64,000 nucleotides of DNA from Chlamydiae bacterium RIFCSPLOWO2_12_FULL_49_12 (GTDB lineage Bacteria; Chlamydiota; Chlamydiia; Chlamydiales; Rhabdochlamydiaceae). The position numbers and the translations under genes were made by a program. How positions within the stretch are numbered: position 1 is the first letter of the stretch; every line of letters starts with the position of its first letter. This document shows positions 361-58,601 of the stretch, piece by piece. The notes below the pieces were generated by a model that saw only the letters and a program-made list of their open reading frames with translations, was not told the origin of the DNA and did no database searches. Location of the stretch: the NCBI GenBank assembly GCA_001796315.1, contig MGME01000004.1:3795-67794 (forward strand). The letters run 5' to 3'.

Positions 361-524
361 TATACTGAACGCGCTTGAAAAATTGGAATTTCGGCTGCGC
401 CAATGCTTCGGGGTTCAACGATCGCATCTTGCCCCCTATTGTCATATTGGGCGACGTGCGATCGTCGAGCCTGGGGGAGCTTTCGCGTCGGCCCAAATCT
501 AATTTTTGAAGTGCTTTCGGTATA
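361..524. repeat. Palindromic element, family B, copy B1 (164 bp hairpin)
   Basis: Termini are TATACTGAACGCGCTTGAAAAATTGG ... AATTTTTGAAGTGCTTTCGGTATA, complementary arm to arm. It contains the ACGATCGCA...TGCGATCGT core shared with B2 and B3. Confidence 0.9.
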
Positions 525-1687: not shown

Positions 1688-3098
1688 CCTTTAAGGGGGG
1701 AAGAGAAGCAAGAAGAGGAGCGATTTCTTCGTTCAAAAAGCGCATCACTTGAGAGGGGGCGAGTCCCACAAGGGAGCTTTCGGATGCCGCTCTTTTAATC
1801 TCTTCGTCAGAGAGCGCGATTTGGGGGTCTTGGGCAAGAGCGCCCAAGAGGTCGGGGAGGATGCCGGTCTTTTTGAGTTGCTCTTTAGCTTTAAGCGCGT
1901 GGCTGCGCAAGCATTCATGGATGGTTTGGCGCTCTTTTCCTCTTTTGACAGATTCCATCAAAATGTTTTCCAGAGCAAGAAAGGGAATTTCTTCCTCCAG
2001 GTGTTTTTTGATGAAGCGCTCGGAGACGGTAAGCCCTCTTGTCAGGTGGATGAGTTCGTTGCAAAGCGCGTCTGCACACAGAAAGGACTCAGGGAGAGAG
2101 CAGCGGCGGTTTGCAGAATCGTCTAAGCTGCGCTCGAGCCATTGGGCGGCCGCCGTATAGGCGGGGTTTTCGCTCAGCGAGATGAGATAGCGCGCGAGCG
2201 AGCAGATGCGCTCGGAACGATGAGGATTTTGCTTGTAGGGCATGGCAGAGGAGCCGACCTGGCTTTTTAAAAAGGGCTCTTCCACCTCCTTTAAGTGGGC
2301 GAGCAGGCGGATGTCCGAAGCCATTTTATGAGCGGACGTTGCAAAAGAGGCGAGGGAGCTTACGAGGAGCTGATCCCACTTTCTGGAATAGGTTTGAGAG
2401 GAGAGAGAGACGCTTTTTGCAAATCCCATCGCCTTGGTGACGTAGCGGTCGAGCGCTTCGACTCTCTTTTCATCTCCCTGAAAGAGGGTAAGGAAAGAGG
2501 CCTGGCTTCCCGTCGCGCCCTTGACGCCTAAAAAGGGCAGCTCGTCGCAGCGTCGTTGCAATTCTTGAAAGTCCAGAAGGAAGTCTTGAAGCCACAAAGA
2601 GGCCCTCTTGCCGACAGTTGTGGGCTGCGCGGGCTGCAGATGGGTAAAGCTTAAACAGGGAAGAGAGGCGTGCTTTTTGGCGAAGATAAAGAGCGCGCGA
2701 AGAAGGGCGGGGAACTTTTGTAGAAGGAGCTTGAGTCCCTGTTGCATTTGGATCAGATCGGTATTGTCCGTCACAAAGGAGGAGGTCGCTCCCAGGTGGA
2801 TGATGGCTCGAGCCTTGGGACAGAGCTTGCCGTAGGCGTGGATGTGGGCCATGACGTCGTGGCGGAATTGTTTTTCATATCGGAGGCACTGTTTCAGGTT
2901 GAGCGTCTTCTTTTGGGCTTCGAGCTCTTTGATTTGCGCTTCTGTGATAGGAAGGCCGAGCCGCTTCTCTCCTTTGGCAAGGGCAATCCAAAGAGAGCGC
3001 CAGGTTGTATATTTAAAGACGGGAGAAAAGAGATAGGACATCTCTTGGCTGGCATAGCGCGTAGAAAGGGGAGTTTCATAGCGGGAAGAAAGGCTCAT
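1662..3098 (-). CDS. purB: Adenylosuccinate lyase
   Basis: RYETPLSTRYASQEMSYLFSPVFKYTTWRSLWIALAKGEKRLGLPIT resembles ADSL-type lyases, and the fumarate-lyase signature GSSAMPYKQNP is present. ATG 3098 overlaps the upstream stop as ATGA. Confidence 0.9.
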   Translation of the reverse strand: MSLSSRYETPLSTRYASQEMSYLFSPVFKYTTWRSLWIALAKGEKRLGLPITEAQIKELEAQKKTLNLKQCLRYEKQFRHDVMAHIHAYGKLCPKARAIIHLGATSSFVTDNTDLIQMQQGLKLLLQKFPALLRALFIFAKKHASLPCLSFTHLQPAQPTTVGKRASLWLQDFLLDFQELQRRCDELPFLGVKGATGSQASFLTLFQGDEKRVEALDRYVTKAMGFAKSVSLSSQTYSRKWDQLLVSSLASFATSAHKMASDIRLLAHLKEVEEPFLKSQVGSSAMPYKQNPHRSERICSLARYLISLSENPAYTAAAQWLERSLDDSANRRCSLPESFLCADALCNELIHLTRGLTVSERFIKKHLEEEIPFLALENILMESVKRGKERQTIHECLRSHALKAKEQLKKTGILPDLLGALAQDPQIALSDEEIKRAASESSLVGLAPSQVMRFLNEEIAPLLASLPPLKVKIPDPQV

Positions 3099-3844
3099 GG
3101 ACCTTGCTTTGCGTAAGATTTGAAGGCGTCCAAGAGCTGACAAAGCCGCCTCTTTTGATCCTCCGTGGGTACAAAATGGGGCTCGTGGAAGAGTCTTTGG
3201 AGCCGCTTTAAAGAGGAGATGATGAGTTCAGCGATATCTTGAGCGCGCCTGTCTTCTTGAGCAAGAGGAAAGGTTTGGCGGATCAAGGAGAGCAGCTCTT
3301 GTTTGGGCTCGCCCCGATAATTTTTTATGATCTCCTCTTTTACGTTCAACGAACCCGAGCGGCTGGCGAGCGCATAGATGACTTGCCTTGGCATTTCCTC
3401 GAGCTTGGAATGGAGGATATGGGGGAGGGCGCGATAGAGCTCAAAGTATTGAAGAAAGTTGTAGGGTGTTTGGCGATTGCCATAGGTAGCGATCAGCCAG
3501 GCGGAAAAGGCGCCGTCGCGGTATTTTTTCAAAATTTCCTGCGCCTTTTTGATTCTTTCTCCGTGAAGGATGGCGGCCTGATTGTTGATGGCCTTCACTT
3601 CCGAAGAGATGTTGGCAAGAGTCAGCAGGTCGTCTTGAATATCCTGCTTTTCGCCCTGACTGTATTCGGAGAGGATGCTCTCAATGCGATGGCGTTCAAA
3701 ATCGCTTAAGGGCGTCACGCGAAAGAGTCCGGAAAAACTCGAAAGATTGCCGCTTGAAGAGAGATGGGCCAGGCTTGTCATCTTGGATAATTTTTCTGTG
3801 GCGTTTTTAAGCCTTTTTGCCAGCATGGAATTGACTTTTACCAT
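3095..3844 (-). CDS. pGP6-D-like protein (chromosomal paralog of a chlamydial plasmid protein, CT583-type)
   Basis: It lies just downstream of the ParA-like gene next to thrS, as in Chlamydia CT581-583. The region AILHGERIKKAQEILKK...FSAWL...PYNFLQYFELYRALP recalls pGP6-D as I remember it. ATG 3844 is preceded by GAGGAG. Confidence 0.55.
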   Translation of the reverse strand: MVKVNSMLAKRLKNATEKLSKMTSLAHLSSSGNLSSFSGLFRVTPLSDFERHRIESILSEYSQGEKQDIQDDLLTLANISSEVKAINNQAAILHGERIKKAQEILKKYRDGAFSAWLIATYGNRQTPYNFLQYFELYRALPHILHSKLEEMPRQVIYALASRSGSLNVKEEIIKNYRGEPKQELLSLIRQTFPLAQEDRRAQDIAELIISSLKRLQRLFHEPHFVPTEDQKRRLCQLLDAFKSYAKQGP

Positions 3845-3860
3845 CTTTTGTCTCCTCACT

Positions 3861-4025
3861 TGTACACAAGTTGATCCAAGAATCGGTTTTTGGCCAGCGC
3901 AAAAACTCCCGCGGTTGGCCTATCGTAAGTGGGTCAATATTAAACTAATATGGACCCATTTACGATAGGACAACCCCGGGGCTTGGGCGCGGCCCAAAAC
4001 CGATTCTTGAGTCAACTTGCGTATA
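3861..4025. repeat. Palindromic element, family A, copy A1 (165 bp hairpin)
   Basis: TGTACACAAGTTGATCCAAGAATCGG ... CCGATTCTTGAGTCAACTTGCGTATA with apex GGGTCAATATTAAACTAATATGGACCC. It sits between parA and the pGP6-like gene and overlaps the parA 3' end. Confidence 0.92.
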
Positions 4026-4778
4026 AATACGAGCCAGCACTTCCTTTGTTAAAGAAAGGTAATCGTGCGCCGCTCTGCTTTTTGGGGCTGTTTTAAAGAC
4101 GGGTTTTCCAAAGACCGAGGCTTCGGAGATGCGGATATCTCTTCGAATCTTCGACTGGAAGAGGCGCTCTGGAAAAGTCTCTTCAATGACTTCTAAAAAC
4201 GCTTGGTTGCTCTTTCCCCGCTCATTCCAAAAAGAGAGGGCGACGCCTACAATCGAAAAGGGGTGACGCTCGGCGATGTTTTTCATGAAGTGAGAGAGCC
4301 GCTGCAATCCTTTCACGCTGTAAAACTCCGGCGTTGCGCAGATAAGCGAGTGCTCTGCGGCGATGAGCGCAGATTCCGTGAGCCAGCAGAGCGAGGGGGG
4401 AGTGTCGATGAGGATGATCTCATAGCTTAAAGTTTTGAGCAGCGCTTTAAGGCGTTCATGGGAGTAGCGGTCGGCTGCCAGCACCCCTGTCACCTCGATG
4501 CGCTCCAGCCAGGTGTCTGCGGGAAGAAGATGAAGATTTTTCACTCCGGTCTTGACGATCACATCCTGGATCTTTTTTTTGCCTTGGAGCACAGGCGCAA
4601 GGCTGTCTTGCCTGTCCGGATCGTAACCGAGGCCTGTTGTCAAGTTGGCTTGCGCATCAAAATCAATCAAAAGGACCTTTTTTTTGTGAAAAAGCGCAAG
4701 CGCCGCTCCCACATGCAAGGCTGTAGAGGTCTTGGCCGTCCCCCCTTTAAAACTACTGACTGCAATGATCTTAGACAT
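3960..4778 (-). CDS. parA: ParA/MinD-family partition ATPase
   Basis: N-terminal deviant Walker A (SSFKGGTAKTSTALHVG) and ParA/Soj-like length. The last 21 codons (YTQVDSRIGFGPRPSPGVVLS) are encoded by repeat A1. Confidence 0.85.
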   Translation of the reverse strand: MSKIIAVSSFKGGTAKTSTALHVGAALALFHKKKVLLIDFDAQANLTTGLGYDPDRQDSLAPVLQGKKKIQDVIVKTGVKNLHLLPADTWLERIEVTGVLAADRYSHERLKALLKTLSYEIILIDTPPSLCWLTESALIAAEHSLICATPEFYSVKGLQRLSHFMKNIAERHPFSIVGVALSFWNERGKSNQAFLEVIEETFPERLFQSKIRRDIRISEASVFGKPVFKTAPKSRAAHDYLSLTKEVLARIYTQVDSRIGFGPRPSPGVVLS

Positions 4779-20291: not shown

Positions 20292-20456
20292 TATACACAA
20301 GTTAACTCAAGAATCGGTTTTCGGCCAGCGCGAAAACTCCCGCGGTTGGCCTATCGTAAAGAGGTCAATATTAAGTTAATATGAACCTCTTTACGATAGG
20401 TCAACCCCGGGGTTTTGGCGCGGCCCAAAGCCGATTCTTGAGCTAACTTGTGTATA
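20292..20456. repeat. Palindromic element, family A, copy A2 (165 bp)
   Basis: TATACACAAGTTAACTCAAGAATCGG ... CCGATTCTTGAGCTAACTTGTGTATA with apex GAGGTCAATATTAAGTTAATATGAACCTC. Confidence 0.92.
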
Positions 20457-20507
20457 TTCTATAATGGACGAGTGATACGCAACCTGCTTAAAAAATCAGG
20501 AGCTTAA

Positions 20508-20541
20508 GCCCAAACCCGATTCTTGAGTCAACTTGTGTATA
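20508..20541. repeat. Solo terminal arm of family A (about 34 bp)
   Basis: GCCCAAACCCGATTCTTGAGTCAACTTGTGTATA equals the right terminus of family A. It contains the first in-frame start candidates of recD. Confidence 0.8.
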
Positions 20542-22151
20542 TAGCAGATGTTGATCTTCTCTTTGCAAAGAGCGTTCTCAAATATGCGCCTTTAGCCAAG
20601 AAGGGCGCAGTTGAGGCGATTTCCCGCGCCTTGGCGGGGGCCCGCCAGGGGCATCTGTGCGTGCGGGTCGAGGATGTCACTCTTTTTCCCGAAGAGGTGG
20701 TCGAGAGAGTGGATCGGACAAGCGGTCCTTTTGCAAAGCCGCTCTGTCTCTTTGGAGACCTTCTCTATTTGCAGAAGAACTGGATTTTTGAGAACCGTCT
20801 TCTCAAGGAGCTAAAGAGATTGTCGGAGCCGCTTCCTCTCTTGCGACTCTCTGATGAGGCCGAAGATCTGACGGAAGAGCAGCGGAACGCAATGCAAAGG
20901 GCGGCCGGTTCTTCTCTTTCCCTGATCACCGGAGGGCCCGGAACGGGGAAGACCTACATGGCGGCGCGCATCATCCGGGCCTTCTTGAAAGAAAATGCGA
21001 GTTTTCGCTTGGCGCTGGCTGCCCCGACGGGAAAGGCGGCCGCTGCCCTGGAAGACGCTCTTTCCGGGATGGGGGGCTCTTTTCCTTCGGCTCGTGTGGC
21101 GACGGTGCATGCCCTGCTCTTCTTAAAGCCCCATAGTGAGGAGGTTGAAAAAAAACTCCCTTACGATCTTATCCTTGTTGACGAAGCTTCCATGCTCGAC
21201 GCGCGTCTTTTCGCCGCCCTCTTGGCGTCTGTACAAGTGGGAACGCGCCTGATCTTGATGGGAGATAGCGACCAGCTCCCGCCCGTGGAGGCGGGATCTC
21301 TTTTTGCAGATCTTTTGGATCTTGGCCTCTTTCCTTGTACGCGTCTGACGAAATGGCTGCGTACAGAGAGCCGTCCTCTTTTAGAATTGGCCCGCGCCAT
21401 ACGGGATGGAGATAAAGCTGTGGCGCTTCAACTGATGCGAAAAGAGAGTCTGCAGGGTGATTTCGGATTCTCTTTTCTCTCCGTCAACCAAATCCACGAA
21501 AGAATCTGGAGCTTTGTGAAAGAGCGCATCCCTGCGCATTTTAGCCAGAGGCCGACAAAAGAGGAAATCCGCCAGGTGTTGGAGGGATTTCGCATTCTCT
21601 CCTGCCTGAGAACGGGGCCTTTGGGCGTCGATGCCCTCAATCAAAAGCTTGTCAATCAGTTTTACAGAACAGCTCCTGTGGGGAGTTATGTGGCCATCCC
21701 CGTTCTCCTCACTCGCAGTGATTCCTCACGAGATCTTTACAACGGACAAACGGGAGTTTTCATCAAACAAAAAGAGGAAAGAGACGGCGTTCTTTTGACG
21801 GAAAAAGACGAGATCGTCTTTGCTGAGCGCACCCTGCCCGCTCTTGCTGTGGCGCACTTCGAGTATGCCTGCTGTCTCTCGGTCCACAAGAGCCAGGGGA
21901 GCGAGTATGCGGAAGTGCTGCTTCTTGTGCCTAAGGGATCGGACAATTTTGGAAGAGAGGTCCTCTATACGGCAGCAACCCGCGCAAAAAACCAATTATG
22001 GGTTGTCGGGGATGAAGCAACAATAGAAAAAGCGCTAGAGCGCTCCTCTCGCCGACAATCGGGACTTATACCGAACGCACTTCAAAAATTGGAATTTCGG
22101 CTGCGCCAAAGCCTCGGGGTTCGACAATCGCATCTCGCCCCATATTTCTAA
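20523..22151 (+). CDS. recD: Exodeoxyribonuclease V alpha subunit
   Basis: Motifs: ITGGPGTGKTY, LILVDEASMLD, LILMGDSDQLPPV, SVHKSQGSEY, YTAATRAK. The start is uncertain (TTG 20523 or GTG 20535 inside the repeat arm, or later). The last 27 codons and the TAA stop are inside repeat B2. Confidence 0.88.
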   Translation: MSQLVYIADVDLLFAKSVLKYAPLAKKGAVEAISRALAGARQGHLCVRVEDVTLFPEEVVERVDRTSGPFAKPLCLFGDLLYLQKNWIFENRLLKELKRLSEPLPLLRLSDEAEDLTEEQRNAMQRAAGSSLSLITGGPGTGKTYMAARIIRAFLKENASFRLALAAPTGKAAAALEDALSGMGGSFPSARVATVHALLFLKPHSEEVEKKLPYDLILVDEASMLDARLFAALLASVQVGTRLILMGDSDQLPPVEAGSLFADLLDLGLFPCTRLTKWLRTESRPLLELARAIRDGDKAVALQLMRKESLQGDFGFSFLSVNQIHERIWSFVKERIPAHFSQRPTKEEIRQVLEGFRILSCLRTGPLGVDALNQKLVNQFYRTAPVGSYVAIPVLLTRSDSSRDLYNGQTGVFIKQKEERDGVLLTEKDEIVFAERTLPALAVAHFEYACCLSVHKSQGSEYAEVLLLVPKGSDNFGREVLYTAATRAKNQLWVVGDEATIEKALERSSRRQSGLIPNALQKLEFRLRQSLGVRQSHLAPYF

Positions 22152-22230
22152 TATTGGGCGAGATGCGATCGTCGAACCGCGAGAGCTTTCGCGTCGGCCC
22201 AAATCCAATTTTTCAAGTGCGTTCGGTATA
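22067..22230. repeat. Palindromic element, family B, copy B2 (164 bp)
   Basis: TATACCGAACGCACTTCAAAAATTGG ... CCAATTTTTCAAGTGCGTTCGGTATA. It lies between convergent recD and rpsT and overlaps both ORF ends. Confidence 0.92.
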
Positions 22231-22539
22231 TTTAGAGGGGGCCTGGGCTTTTTGCGTAGCGGCGCTTAATTTTCGGCTGAGCTTGGACTTAATCCTGGAG
22301 GCTTTATTGGGCTTGATGATTCCCTTTTTCATGCCTTTGTCAACCAGACGATAGAGGCTGCTTAGTTTTTCGGAAGGAGCTGCAGGGCTGTTTTGCGTGC
22401 AAGCATCTTGAACGGCGCGGATAGCGTTTTTTACTTGTGATTTGAAACTCTTGTTTTTCAACAGGCATTTCTTGCTTTGCAGAATGCGCTTTTTTGCAGT
22501 GGGACGCTTTGTTTTTGTCTTTGGAGTCTCTTCAGCCAT
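22213..22539 (-). CDS. rpsT: 30S ribosomal protein S20
   Basis: Basic 108-aa protein. KKRILQSKK...NKSFKSQVKNAIR...LVDKGMKKGIIKPNKASRIKSKLS matches the S20 pattern. The last 5 codons and the stop lie in B2. Confidence 0.88.
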   Translation of the reverse strand: MAEETPKTKTKRPTAKKRILQSKKCLLKNKSFKSQVKNAIRAVQDACTQNSPAAPSEKLSSLYRLVDKGMKKGIIKPNKASRIKSKLSRKLSAATQKAQAPSKYTERT

Positions 22540-25595: not shown

Positions 25596-25668
25596 TGGAG
25601 CGTAGCGGAATCGAACCGCTGACCTCAACAATGCGAGTGTTGCGCTCTACCAACTGAGCTAACGCCCC
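25596..25668 (-). tRNA. tRNA-Ala (anticodon CGC)
   Basis: The reverse complement GGGGCGTTAGCTCAGTTGGTAGAGCGCAACACTCGCATTGTTGAGGTCAGCGGTTCGATTCCGCTACGCTCCA folds as a cloverleaf. It has a G3:U70 pair and anticodon loop CTCGCAT. No CCA is encoded. Confidence 0.92.
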
Positions 25669-25682
25669 AGAAAAAACAACTC

Positions 25683-25790
25683 TTAAACTCGACTTTGCAA
25701 CTTTTTGGACCCGCCTGCCTCGTCTATTTGCTCCCCCGAGAGCAAATATCTCGAGGCCTTCGGGCCCAAAAAGTTGCAAAGTCGAGTTAA
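25683..25790. repeat. Palindromic element E1 (108 bp), a short relative of family G
   Basis: TTAAACTCGACTTTGCAACTTTTTGG...CCAAAAAGTTGCAAAGTCGAGTTAA with an internal hairpin TATTTGCTC...GAGCAAATA. It lies between the two tRNA-Ala genes. Confidence 0.85.
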
Positions 25791-25804
25791 AAACGGAGTA
25801 GAAA

Positions 25805-25877
25805 TGGAGCGTAGCGGGGTCGAACCGCTGACCTCAACAATGCCATTGTTGCGCTCTACCAACTGAGCTAACGCCCC
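25805..25877 (-). tRNA. tRNA-Ala (anticodon GGC)
   Basis: The reverse complement GGGGCGTTAGCTCAGTTGGTAGAGCGCAACAATGGCATTGTTGAGGTCAGCGGTTCGACCCCGCTACGCTCCA has G3:U70 and anticodon loop ATGGCAT. It is near-identical to the neighbouring tRNA-Ala. Confidence 0.92.
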
Positions 25878-35866: not shown

Positions 35867-36031
35867 GATACCGAACGCACTTGAAAAATTGGATTTGGGC
35901 CGACGCGAAAGCTCTCCTCGGTTCGACGATCGCATCTCGCCCAATATTAGAAATATGGGGCGAGATGCGATCGTCGAACCCCGAGGTTTTGGCGCAGCCG
36001 AAATTCCAAGTTTTGAAGTGCGTTCGGTATA
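35867..36031. repeat. Palindromic element, family B, copy B3 (inverted relative to B1/B2)
   Basis: GATACCGAACGCACTTGAAAAATTGG ... CCAAGTTTTGAAGTGCGTTCGGTATA. The arm order is swapped relative to B2. It sits in a divergent intergenic region. Confidence 0.9.
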
Positions 36032-36511: not shown

Positions 36512-36676
36512 TATACACAAGTTGATTCAAGAAGGGGTTTTGGGCCAGCGCGAAAGCTCCCGCGGTTGGCCTATCGTAAGTGGGTCAATATTAAACTAAT
36601 ATGGACCCATTTACTATAGGCCAACCCCGGGGCTTTGGCGCGGCCCAAAACCGATTCTTGAGTCAACTTGTGTATA
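36512..36676. repeat. Palindromic element, family A, copy A3 (165 bp)
   Basis: TATACACAAGTTGATTCAAGAAGGGG ... CCGATTCTTGAGTCAACTTGTGTATA. The apex is identical to A1. It overlaps the stop of the TagF-like gene. Confidence 0.92.
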
Positions 36677-42355: not shown

Positions 42356-42520
42356 TATACACAAGTTGATTCAAGAATCGGTTTTGGGCCGCGCCAAAGC
42401 CCCGGGGTTGGTCTATCGTAACTGGGTCCATATTAGTTTAATATTGACCCAGTTACGATAGGCCAACCGCGGGAGCTTTCGCGCTGGCCCAAAACCGATT
42501 CTTGAATCAACTTGTGTATA
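42356..42520. repeat. Palindromic element, family A, copy A4 (inverted orientation)
   Basis: TATACACAAGTTGATTCAAGAATCGG ... CCGATTCTTGAATCAACTTGTGTATA. The asymmetric internal arms are in the opposite order to A1-A3. Confidence 0.92.
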
Positions 42521-55793: not shown

Positions 55794-58391
55794 ATGGGTT
55801 GTTATCTAACCTCTTTAGCTGCAGTTCTTTTTTTAACTTTTTCACTCTTTTCAGGAGAGAGAGGCCCTTTGCTGCGCGCTAAAGAGCCCCACTGGCGGCC
55901 CACCATTGTGGAGACCTATCCCGAAGGCCAGCCCATGCGTGTTGTTTATGTTGAAGAGTTGGAAGGGGGCGAGCTAAAAGAATGGAAACAGGTCACATTC
56001 TACGCGACGGGACAGATCCAGGAGGAAGTTGATCTAGTCCGCATTTCCAAAGAGGCGCCGGCTTTTTCCCTGTGGAATAAAGAGCATGTTCCTCACGGGG
56101 CCTCTCTTGTCTACTATCCCAACGGGGCTCTGGAAAAAATTGCTTATTTTACTCAAGGATTATTGGATGGTCAATGCACCCTCTATTTTCCCGATGGCAA
56201 AGAGCGCTTGAAGTGCACTTATAAAGAAGGAAAGTTCGACGGGCCGATTGTCGCCTATTTTGAAGATGGGACAAAATCCAAAGAGGGATGTTACAAAGAA
56301 GGCAAACTGCACGGCGATCTCATCCAGTACTTCTCCAAGGGAGGCCGCTCTTCGCTTGTCACCTATCTCGAGGGGGTTCCACACGGCTCTTCGAGCGAGT
56401 GGTATGAGAATGGTGTTTTGAAAGCTTCCCGCCATTACCATAAAGGGCTTTTACATTCTGACGGGAAAAATCCTGCAGTCATTCTCTACAACGAAGAGAG
56501 AGGGATTCAGGAGGCTCAGGATTTCAAACAGGGAAAGCCCGTGGGTATCCACATCCAATACCACTCCAACGGGAAGGAGAGTTACAAGGTTTCCTACGTA
56601 GACGGACAAAAGGAGGGGAAGGAAATCCATTTTTCCACTACCGGAAAAGTGAAAGGAGAGGGTGAATATGAGCGGGGCGCGCCAAAGGGGCGGCATTGGA
56701 GAGATCATGAAAATGGAGCGCCGGCCTTAAGGGCGCTCTATGATGAAAATGGAAATTTTGCAGAGCCGCTTGTGACCTTTGGAGAAAATGGCAAAAAGCT
56801 CTCGCAATATAGACTTTCAAAAGAGGGCTCCTTTGAAGGGGAGTATCTAAGCTGGTATGAAGAAGGTCAGCCCAAGGAGGAGTTCCGCTACGAAAAGGGA
56901 GTTAAAAGCGGCGAGCAGCGAGAGTTCTATCCTTCAGGGCAGATGAAGGAGAGAGCTTTTTACGATGCAGGGATGAAAGAGGGTATTTTTGAGAGCTGGC
57001 ATGAAAATGGCAAGCTTGCAAAACAAGCGACCTATCAAAAAGGGAGCAGGGAAGGCAAGGCGGAAGAGTGGTTTTCGGACGGTCGCCTAAAATGTCAGGA
57101 ATGCTACCGGCAAGGAGAACTCGAAGAAGAGAAAAAAGAATGGTTTGAGAGCGGGGTGTTGCATTTGTCCGGATGTTTTAGCAAAGGAAAAAAGAGCAAG
57201 GAGCATTGCGAATGGAATGAGAAGGGGGAACTCGTCTTTCAGGGCAGTTATGTTGACGGTCTTCCCGACGGGTTGGTGACTCTTTGGTGGAAAGATGACA
57301 AAATCCGCGAGCGGATTCATTTTAACAAGGGAAAGAGAGAGGGGATAGACGAAGAGTTCTATCTGGACGGAAGCCCCAAGGCCCGTGCCCATTACAGAGA
57401 TGATCAGGTCGATGGTCTCTTTGAAACCTGGCATGAGGGCGGTGGTATCCATCAGATCAAGACGTTTAAACTGGGAAAGCCCGTTGGAGAACAGAAAGAG
57501 TATTTCTCGAAACAAGAGATCGGTGAACAGGGAGCGGAGGTTCTCTCCTACCATTACCACTATAATGAAGAGGGAAAGCTTCATGGGGAGCAAAGGACCT
57601 ATTATCCCAATGGGAGGATTCAAACGGTCATTACGTATGACGGAGGTTCTCTTGAGGGAAGAAAGGCTCTATGGGATGAAGAGGGGGCTCTTTTAGAAGA
57701 GGCCTTTTACGAAAAAGGACAGCTTCATGGGCGCCACTTTGAAAGAGGACAAAGGAAAGAAGAGATCATCACCCACTACAAAAACAACAAAAAAGAGGGC
57801 GTCCATGAGATCTATTATCCCGCCAATGACTACTTTGGGAGAGTACGAGCTCTTGAAGCGCGTTTCGTTTCCGACAAGCTCGAGGGAGATGTCGTGGAGA
57901 ATAATGAGGCTGGAACAATAATTGCAAAGACCCCTTACAGGAATGGAAAGAAGGAAGGGATTGCCGAGCTTTACTTTCCCAAAGGGGCGATGATGATGAA
58001 GATATCTTACAAAGAGGGGAAGAAAGAGGGGCCGGCTATCCGATTCTTTGAAAACGGGAACACCCAAAGAGAGGTCTCTTTTGTCGCCGATTTTAAGGAG
58101 GGGGATGAAAAGAGCTATTTTGAAAATGGTCAGCTTGCCTCTTTCATCCAATTTAAACAGGACAAGATCGACGGCAACTATCAGGAATGGAATGAACAGG
58201 GAATACTTCTCTTTGATTCCGAATACAAAGAAAATAAACGCCACGGAAAATTTAATAAATACGACGAGGAGGGAAAACCCTATCTTTTGCAAACCTTTGT
58301 CGATGACGAACTCGACGGCATCAAAAGGCGTTATGAAAAGGATGGATCCATCACAGAGACCCGGTACAGCAAAGGAAAAAAACTTGACTAG
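55794..58391 (+). CDS. Large MORN-variant / YwqK-like repeat protein
   Basis: Signal-like N-terminus, then more than 25 iterations of a ~23-aa unit (Y.NG.....Y..GK.(D/H)G....(Y/W)). AAGGAA lies upstream of ATG 55794. The TAG stop lies in the first bases of repeat D1. Confidence 0.8.
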   Translation: MGCYLTSLAAVLFLTFSLFSGERGPLLRAKEPHWRPTIVETYPEGQPMRVVYVEELEGGELKEWKQVTFYATGQIQEEVDLVRISKEAPAFSLWNKEHVPHGASLVYYPNGALEKIAYFTQGLLDGQCTLYFPDGKERLKCTYKEGKFDGPIVAYFEDGTKSKEGCYKEGKLHGDLIQYFSKGGRSSLVTYLEGVPHGSSSEWYENGVLKASRHYHKGLLHSDGKNPAVILYNEERGIQEAQDFKQGKPVGIHIQYHSNGKESYKVSYVDGQKEGKEIHFSTTGKVKGEGEYERGAPKGRHWRDHENGAPALRALYDENGNFAEPLVTFGENGKKLSQYRLSKEGSFEGEYLSWYEEGQPKEEFRYEKGVKSGEQREFYPSGQMKERAFYDAGMKEGIFESWHENGKLAKQATYQKGSREGKAEEWFSDGRLKCQECYRQGELEEEKKEWFESGVLHLSGCFSKGKKSKEHCEWNEKGELVFQGSYVDGLPDGLVTLWWKDDKIRERIHFNKGKREGIDEEFYLDGSPKARAHYRDDQVDGLFETWHEGGGIHQIKTFKLGKPVGEQKEYFSKQEIGEQGAEVLSYHYHYNEEGKLHGEQRTYYPNGRIQTVITYDGGSLEGRKALWDEEGALLEEAFYEKGQLHGRHFERGQRKEEIITHYKNNKKEGVHEIYYPANDYFGRVRALEARFVSDKLEGDVVENNEAGTIIAKTPYRNGKKEGIAELYFPKGAMMMKISYKEGKKEGPAIRFFENGNTQREVSFVADFKEGDEKSYFENGQLASFIQFKQDKIDGNYQEWNEQGILLFDSEYKENKRHGKFNKYDEEGKPYLLQTFVDDELDGIKRRYEKDGSITETRYSKGKKLD

Positions 58392-58553
58392 TGCTCTGTC
58401 AACATTCAAATTGCGGATGCGCTAGCGCGAAAGCTGCCGAATTTCAACGATCGCAAGTGCCTTAGTATTAGAAATACAAATGGCACGTGCGATCGTTGAA
58501 ATTCGGCGCTTTGGCGCCGCGCATCCGTAATTTCAATGTTGACAGAGCACTAG
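58388..58553. repeat. Palindromic element, family D, copy D1 (166 bp hairpin)
   Basis: CTAGTGCTCTGTCAACATTCAAATTGCGGATGCGC ... GCGCATCCGTAATTTCAATGTTGACAGAGCACTAG. It shares the ACGATCGCA...TGCGATCGT core and the GCGAAAGC/GCTTTGGC core with family B. Confidence 0.9.
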
Positions 58554-58601
58554 TTTATCTCGACTGTGCGCCGATCAAAGCTGCCTGCAAAAAATCTCTT
58601 T

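Follow-up and report, generated by a model that had tools for sequence, protein, structure and literature searches.

Correia elements (CREE) duplicate a TA target and have termini starting with TATA; their 26-bp terminal repeat consensus is Neisseria-specific, they contain an internal integration host factor (IHF) site, and we know of no cognate transposase for them. A bidirectional intrinsic terminator is a GC-rich stem-loop with a U-run directly after it and an A-run before it. To our knowledge, mobile palindromes lying in frame within genes were once thought near-exclusive to Rickettsia, and enterobacterial repetitive intergenic consensus (ERIC) elements are not known to give stop codons to two convergent genes. 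The Rickettsia palindromic elements (RPE; Ogata et al. 2000, 2002) are palindromic repeats of several families that sit in frame in conserved genes and have no known transposase; transcripts of neighbouring genes include Correia elements, whose hairpins RNase III cleaves; and ERIC elements at Yersinia 3′ ends alter mRNA stability (PMC10969869). QMITE1/2 of Coxiella burnetii, transposable elements of the miniature inverted-repeat type (MITEs) of an intracellular bacterium, insert at the ends of genes and change the termini of proteins (PMC5896051). Repetitive extragenic palindromic (REP) elements are 20–40 bp long, bear GTAG/CGTC tags and are associated with RAYT transposases (PMC3733652). Here we analyse B2, a palindrome between the convergent genes recD and rpsT in a 64,000-nt stretch of DNA (the window; contig MGME01000004.1, positions 3,795 to 67,794) from Chlamydiae bacterium RIFCSPLOWO2_12_FULL_49_12 (GCA_001796315.1; Rhabdochlamydiaceae). 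The source genome, G000, is a draft of 1.42 Mb in 46 contigs with 49% GC and 94% completeness. Coordinates are window positions unless a contig prefix (C.., L..) is given.

We assign B2 to a palindromic MITE family of environmental Chlamydiae that resembles RPE and Correia elements. Our preferred reading, to which we assign a probability of about 0.72, is that B2 is a non-autonomous, MITE-like mobile element that inserted into the overlapping stop codons of recD and rpsT and now supplies both stops. Inverted-repeat detection delimited a 164-nt near-perfect palindrome, in which the outer arms (22067-22112 and 22185-22230) are 83% complementary and the inner arms (22113-22146 and 22150-22183) are 91% complementary, with 3 nt between them. 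The free energy of its RNA fold is −120 kcal/mol for the + strand and −123.9 kcal/mol for the − strand, where dinucleotide shuffles give about −60 ± 4.5 kcal/mol (z = −14; 0/200 shuffles as stable). The 61 nt separating the two stop codons are entirely B2 sequence. Together with the arm coordinates, this spacing bears out the original prediction, made from the letters of the window, that a 164-bp hairpin leaves nothing repeat-free between recD and rpsT. In an Rfam search B2 matched no family at the gathering score; its only matches, to hairpin models of generic microRNA precursors, scored 38–40 bits against a 70-bit cut-off, and we took them as artefacts.

The stop codons of both genes come from the element. 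Translation confirmed the predicted course of each frame: recD continues for 27 codons within the left arm (22068-22148) to a TAA at the apex (22149-22151), and the final five codons of rpsT (YTERT, 22216-22230) and its stop (22213-22215) lie within the right end, so B2 ends both open reading frames (ORFs). Signs of the same sequence recur elsewhere in the genome. The RecD-tail peptide IPNALQKLEFRLRQSLGVRQSHLAPYF is matched by tblastn at 17 other copies of the element, and the YTERT tail with its stop also terminates an HI0933-like gene at a partial element. RecD orthologues, found in 29 of 31 relatives, align only as far as residues 504–527 of the 542-residue G000 protein; in 7 genomes RecD ends 0–14 residues past the point where the G000 tail begins.

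B2 is one of many copies. A BLAST search of the genome returned 18 full or near-full copies, most of them 92–97% identical to B2, along with many partial or internally deleted ones; about 17 of the 18 belong to the B family, at 87–97% identity. When the 18 copies were aligned, similarity ran from exactly TATACC to exactly GGTATA and the flanks were unrelated, which fixes the identity, boundaries and copy number of the element. The B2 termini (TATACCGAACG... and ...CGTTCGGTATA) are complementary, as is the whole element. Searching the genome for self-complementarity uncovered 102 long palindromes, 62 of them at least 140 bp long, which fall into several related families. A profile of the A/B superfamily matched 77 loci (37 of at least 140 bp) that make up 0.65% of the genome.

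Removing B2 while keeping a single TA closes both reading frames. recD then reads ...caa tcg gga ctt att TAG agg... and ends in ...SGLI, and rpsT reads ccc tct aaa TAA and ends in ...APSK. The reconstructed junction is ...CAATCGGGACT-TA-TTTAGAGGGGG... (also ...GGGACT-TA-TTTAGAGG...), and across it the two genes overlap convergently by 8 nt, inside the range seen in relatives. Keeping one TA costs 2 extra recD codons and no extra rpsT codons, compared with 41 and 33 when no bases are kept and 14 and 11 when TATA is kept. Applied to other genes that run on into an element, the same excision meets a stop at once in two cases (C18:8925 and C19:39715) and after 3 codons in a third (C39:54397). It also leaves open the ORF of an HI0933-like gene that contains an element, a frame that is broken by keeping either nothing or TATA. 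Because one-TA excision closes both frames at B2 and works at other copies, we infer that TA is the insertion target of the family and is duplicated in the process. Four or five reconstructions point to this target duplication, namely those of recD, rpsT, the two other stops, and the HI0933-like frame and domain. The family also appears to have been mobile in the past.

These observations suggest the following course of events. The TA within the TAA stop of rpsT, where that gene overlapped convergent recD by ~8 nt, would have received B2 and been duplicated. Insertion would have destroyed both original stops, leaving each gene to read on to an element-borne stop; RecD would thereby have gained a 27-residue tail in place of a single residue, and S20 would have gained 5 residues. 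Both mRNAs would carry or run into a hairpin of ~80 bp. A convergent 3′ junction would be expected to tolerate such an insertion well, and any effect on transcription or mRNA fate would be a by-product. Lacking a U-tract, the hairpin might, for example, make RNA polymerase pause or block its path, hold off 3′ exonucleases or serve as a substrate for RNase III. Since insertion and tolerance would explain the position of B2, a selected function is not required. In the annotated proteins, the final 27 residues of RecD and the final 5 of S20 derive from the repeat and are non-native.

Table 1 Positions of B2, its two flanking genes and related repeats in the window.
Feature	Position	Strand	Description	Evidence or remark
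recD	20523-22151	+	exodeoxyribonuclease V alpha subunit	TIGR01447 RecD 4.6e-95; Pfam AAA_30, AAA_19, UvrD_C_2
RecD tail IPNALQKLEFRLRQSLGVRQSHLAPYF and TAA stop	22068-22151	+	element-derived	translation; no counterpart in orthologues
rpsT	22213-22539	-	ribosomal protein S20, 108 aa	TIGR00029 1.2e-17; public gene calls agree
S20 tail YTERT and TGA stop	22213-22230	-	element-derived	translation
B2	22067-22230		~164-bp full-length MITE-like palindromic repeat, TATACC...GGTATA	inverted repeats, fold, copy alignment
B2 apical loop	22147-22149		recD TAA (22149-22151) straddles the loop and the first right-arm base pairs	
Left TA	22067-22068		putative first copy of a 2-bp target-site duplication	empty-site reconstruction
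Right TA	22229-22230		putative second duplication copy, probably once the TA of the rpsT TAA stop	empty-site reconstruction
B1	361-524		sister copy	87% identical to B2
B3	35868-36031		sister copy, inverted orientation	97% identical to B2
A1	3863-4025		related family of the superfamily	between parA and a pGP6-D-like ORF
A2	20292-20456		related family	upstream of recD
Solo superfamily arm	20499-20541			nhmmer profile match, E = 1.5e-4
A3	36512-36676			between convergent ORFs
A4	42356-42520			between convergent ORFs
D1	about 58387-58554		more distant family	between convergent ORFs

Relatives share the convergent arrangement of neighbouring recD and rpsT, and in them the junction is either a short spacer, with a compact GC hairpin in several genomes, or a direct overlap of the two genes. 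Stop-to-stop distances range from −26 (overlap) to +108 nt across 7 genomes. The closest relative that we found (56% identity) has its recD TAG and rpsT TAA 10 nt apart without an element, and the next downstream gene is conserved. The last recD codons of that relative (L170:1826-1848) hold a perfect small hairpin, GCGGGCTAGCCCGC, followed by ATTTTT, which is a terminator-like site within the coding 3′ end, 10 nt ahead of the rpsT stop.

Other genes of the source genome are affected in similar ways. Rough gene calls place 18 of the 62 elements that measure at least 140 bp across the 3′ end of a neighbouring ORF, indicating that borrowing a stop from the element is routine in this genome; about 18 other genes take their stop codon or C terminus from the same repeat class. 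An HI0933-like FAD oxidoreductase (C21:43626-45068) contains a whole B element in frame (C21:44330-44493; 54 codons, residues 235–290), and Pfam PF03486 spans residues 19–466 of the protein; it is this ORF that terminates in the YTERT tail mentioned above. With the element removed, the barrel domain PF22780 becomes continuous (profile positions 1–165) and its score rises from 83.9 to 92.9 bits. A second case of such RPE-like in-frame behaviour comes from a related genome, Centralia_MAG_243 (JAJPIB010000056.1), where a 243-aa protein (L072:121-852, − strand) has an in-frame element-encoded segment, NLDLRPSQSVGIGRLNLAPISNSGDDSIVPIAGAFASVLNQIFSHVGY.

The superfamily extends well beyond G000. We detected it in 34 of 101 genomes, representing 21 of 40 genera of the same family, at 70–82% identity and with the same termini and length. 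Pattern matches to the element termini occur in many environmental chlamydial metagenome-assembled genomes (MAGs), and the records that hold related elements are labelled Chlamydiae, Chlamydiia or Rhabdochlamydiaceae. An exact scan of other species' genomes for the B terminus gave 0 matches, and a degenerate pattern was needed to detect related elements. We then aligned 19 copies from seven genomes and scored compensatory change against shuffles and controls in which the pairing partner was slid along the alignment. Changes on both sides were seen at 35 of 68 hairpin pairs, and 95.3% of cells were paired compared with 82.6% after shuffling. The covariation score was 0.385, against 0.149 in shuffles and ~0.05 when the partner was slid by 1–3 columns; no shuffle attained the observed values. 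The whole hairpin is conserved through compensatory changes, and such change over its full length indicates that the palindromic form itself has been maintained through long evolutionary time. This maintenance could serve propagation of the element or a host function, between which the data do not distinguish, and repair between the arms could also contribute.

How B2 relates to the described systems depends on the feature compared. Like a MITE, it is short (164 bp, where MITEs are below ~500 bp), lacks a transposase ORF, has terminal inverted repeats and occurs in many dispersed copies; we found no related autonomous insertion sequence (IS) with the same termini, although in a draft assembly such absence is weak evidence. 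The family also behaves like RPE. Both are palindromes of ~100–165 bp in several related families, found in an obligate intracellular lineage, with a transposase known for neither, and both keep open frames through the element, as shown by the whole copy that adds 54 residues inside the HI0933-like oxidoreductase. Both also rewrite C termini, here those of recD, rpsT and others. The family differs from RPE in its Chlamydiota host, in having copies that are mostly intergenic or at gene ends rather than intragenic, and in the TA duplication that we reconstruct here. We use RPE-like in the sense that the family works like RPE, a likeness of behaviour and not of membership. The same holds for Correia elements, which are also small, non-autonomous and high in copy number and start with TATA, and whose TA target resembles the one reconstructed here. 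Pairing in Correia elements involves mainly the 26-bp terminal repeats; the element described here is palindromic throughout, with 68 conserved pairs. The host lineages are unrelated, and the IHF site and outward promoter are features known from Correia elements.

Other comparisons are looser. ERIC elements, also called intergenic repeat units (IRU), and REP elements are likewise imperfect palindromes, and the enterobacterial ones are transcribed within 3′ untranslated regions and can change mRNA stability; B2, unlike REP, has no GTAG/CGTC tag. QMITE1/2 have unrelated sequences and a different architecture, a comparison made by description only. As in a bidirectional intrinsic terminator, a single hairpin is common to two convergent units, and relatives have a compact version at the junction. 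In contrast to such terminators, the B2 stem has no flanking A- or T-tract, measures ~80 bp rather than 5–15 bp, and is entered by both ORFs. Two points stand out, namely the clean replacement of two stop codons at once and RPE-like behaviour in a second intracellular phylum. Such behaviour in environmental Chlamydiae suggests convergent tolerance of these elements in the reduced genomes of obligate intracellular lineages, and the family offers a second system for asking how palindromes move without a recognisable transposase. A search of the literature, whose searchable coverage is incomplete, returned no description of such elements in Chlamydiae.

Several results weigh against a mobile element inserted at TA. 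The assembly, a 94%-complete draft, has no IS630/DDE_3 and no Y1/RAYT gene (mariner, PF01359, was not searched), and G000 has no pairs of element termini 260–4000 bp apart. We found no empty allele, as all five public copies of the locus carry B2, the sampled populations being 99.8% identical; when metagenome contigs were scanned for the reconstructed junction as an exact 24-nt string, there were 0 matches. The terminal TA is invariant in nearly all copies and could belong to the terminal repeat of the element instead of being a duplication, which the reconstructions favour without proving it. Lastly, convergent gaps show a mild, ~1.8-fold excess of copies (16 of the 55 that are intergenic, compared with 16.4% of gaps; binomial p = 0.013), which, together with the conserved hairpin, also fits a selected 3′-end function. 

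Further searches for a partner or an empty site gave little. Terminus pairs 1.8–1.9 kb apart in relatives (L115, L072) enclose ordinary genes and not an autonomous element. We considered an IS630-like (DDE_3) element of the relative G057 (L162:739-2153, on G057:C1) as a transposase partner, and rejected it because its 106-bp perfect inverted repeats are unrelated to TATACC. A search for an empty site by way of S20 retrieved only distant homologues, the protein itself and a copy with a frameshift, which likewise runs into the element. Within one genus, nine joined flank pairs compared between G105 and G099 on one side and G043 on the other yielded no match spanning the junction, the flanks being too diverged.

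The alternative that survives best is exaptation. B2, a former mobile repeat, would now form the 3′ ends of recD and rpsT in place of a small ancestral terminator, blocking convergent read-through or shielding the 3′ ends from exonucleases. The convergent-gap enrichment and the compensatory conservation of the full-length hairpin speak for this idea, as do the extreme stability of B2 on both strands and the compact GC hairpins of several relatives at the same recD/rpsT position. There is also precedent, in that MITEs and REP-like repeats affect transcript ends and stability, as with Correia elements processed by RNase III, ERIC elements at 3′ ends and SPRITE elements, which are terminator-like (PMC10969869). 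However, no U-run follows the B2 stem on either strand (flanks TTTAGAGG on + and AGTCCCGA on −), and a terminator scan placed no site at the element edges. Hairpin-plus-T sites elsewhere in the window are, in contrast, enriched (46 compared with 27.5 ± 4.8 in shuffles), which suggests that the organism uses canonical terminator signals. Ribosomes on recD would translate the left arm to the apex and should hinder co-transcriptional folding, and the whole element within the apparently intact HI0933-like gene must be transcribed through. Moreover, divergent (promoter-side) gaps are not depleted of copies (9/55, equal to background), many copies fill short tandem gaps, and the pairing of B2 is no better than that of its sister copies. 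We therefore consider exaptation unlikely, and a real 3′-end function for B2, which would be non-canonical at best, similarly doubtful on what the sequence offers.

The original prediction had presented B2 as an obvious candidate for a bidirectional terminator or an mRNA-stabilising 3′ hairpin. Its structural part stands, in that both ORFs end in B2 and a very stable hairpin lies at both 3′ ends, but a mobile repeat lacking a U-run is not an obvious terminator. A terminator role is possible but unsupported. We dropped one argument against it, drawn from copies within operons, because the tight tandem pairs concerned (GroEL/glycosyltransferase-like, TyrS/HU-like and mutY/GT4) do not clearly form operons. 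An RNase III gene is present in G000, and the ~80-bp B2 duplex would be an expected substrate; processing would then be at least as likely as stabilisation.

A broader proposal combines mobility with co-option. It holds that B2 belongs to an undescribed RPE-like superfamily of ~165-bp, TA-targeting, protein-compatible mobile palindromes in at least 21 genera of environmental Chlamydiae, and that convergent copies such as the one between recD and rpsT have been co-opted as U-tract-independent bidirectional 3′-end signals that replaced small ancestral terminators. We regard this full combination as improbable. If the terminator role were true, selfish repeats would have been recruited as gene-boundary signals, and nothing found here requires that they were.

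A REPIN/RAYT-type origin, in which an inverted pair of REP sequences is mobilised by a Y1 transposase without target duplication, is very unlikely. The family does resemble REPINs in being a long, multicopy, mostly intergenic hairpin-forming repeat, and compensatory conservation of the hairpin would suit a transposase that recognises hairpin DNA. Yet no Y1_Tnp (PF01797) gene is present in G000, nor in 5 of 9 element-rich relatives, and the termini read TATACC...GGTATA instead of the GTAG/CGTC tags given for REP superfamilies (PMC3733652). In addition, if no TA is kept on excision, the HI0933-like gene loses its frame, and recD and rpsT read on for many codons.

The recD/B2/rpsT arrangement is present in 4 independent public assemblies at 99.7–99.8% identity and on one further metagenome contig, in which RecD is identical across 542 residues; identical rpsT genes occur in the groundwater MAG assemblies GCA_001796065 and GCA_001796275. 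That the palindrome formed locally, or is a chimeric assembly artefact at a repeat, has a negligible chance of being right: assemblies of this population are indeed broken or wrongly joined at repeats, as where one public contig departs from the window exactly at the A2 boundary (20292), but the B2 junction is identical in five independent public contigs, contig sequence runs unbroken across both flanking genes, and sister copies elsewhere in the genome, at 92–97% identity, exclude a local origin. The departing contig (ENA ERZ27254754 k141_1552149; L016) is 99.8% identical to the window from 20292 rightward and has other genes left of A2, a PNP_UDP_1 gene and a TRCF gene. Either the DNA was rearranged at the repeat, or the contig was assembled as a chimera.

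Further observations concern the ends of the two genes. Where recD starts is uncertain; in public gene calls the protein has 538 aa, consistent with GTG 20535, and the solo superfamily arm upstream overlaps the earliest start candidates (20523 and 20535). The true start may therefore lie in repeat-derived DNA. A database S20 variant of 113 aa (P0002) is identical to the S20 of the window through residue 73 and then diverges as if frameshifted, terminating in IYRTHLKNWI, which is the element terminus in another frame. An error of sequencing or assembly in a different sample probably accounts for the divergence.

Among the other repeats of the window, A3, A4 and D1 had also been placed between convergent genes, in agreement with our rough gene calls. 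A1 fills the junction between parA (3960-4778, − strand) and a downstream 254-aa ORF (3095-3859, − strand) that was labelled pGP6-D-like in the original prediction. If this pair is co-transcribed, it would be suggestive of tolerance of A1 inside an operon. Two tandem tRNA genes (69.5 and 62.9 bits) at 25596-25877 have a 108-bp hairpin between them (25683-25791), to which a microRNA-precursor model of Rfam gives a sub-threshold match. A separate class comprises ~20 dispersed 58-bp palindromes that are ~88% self-complementary, for example at C10:23746-23803, C2:11092-11149 and C39:31594-31651.

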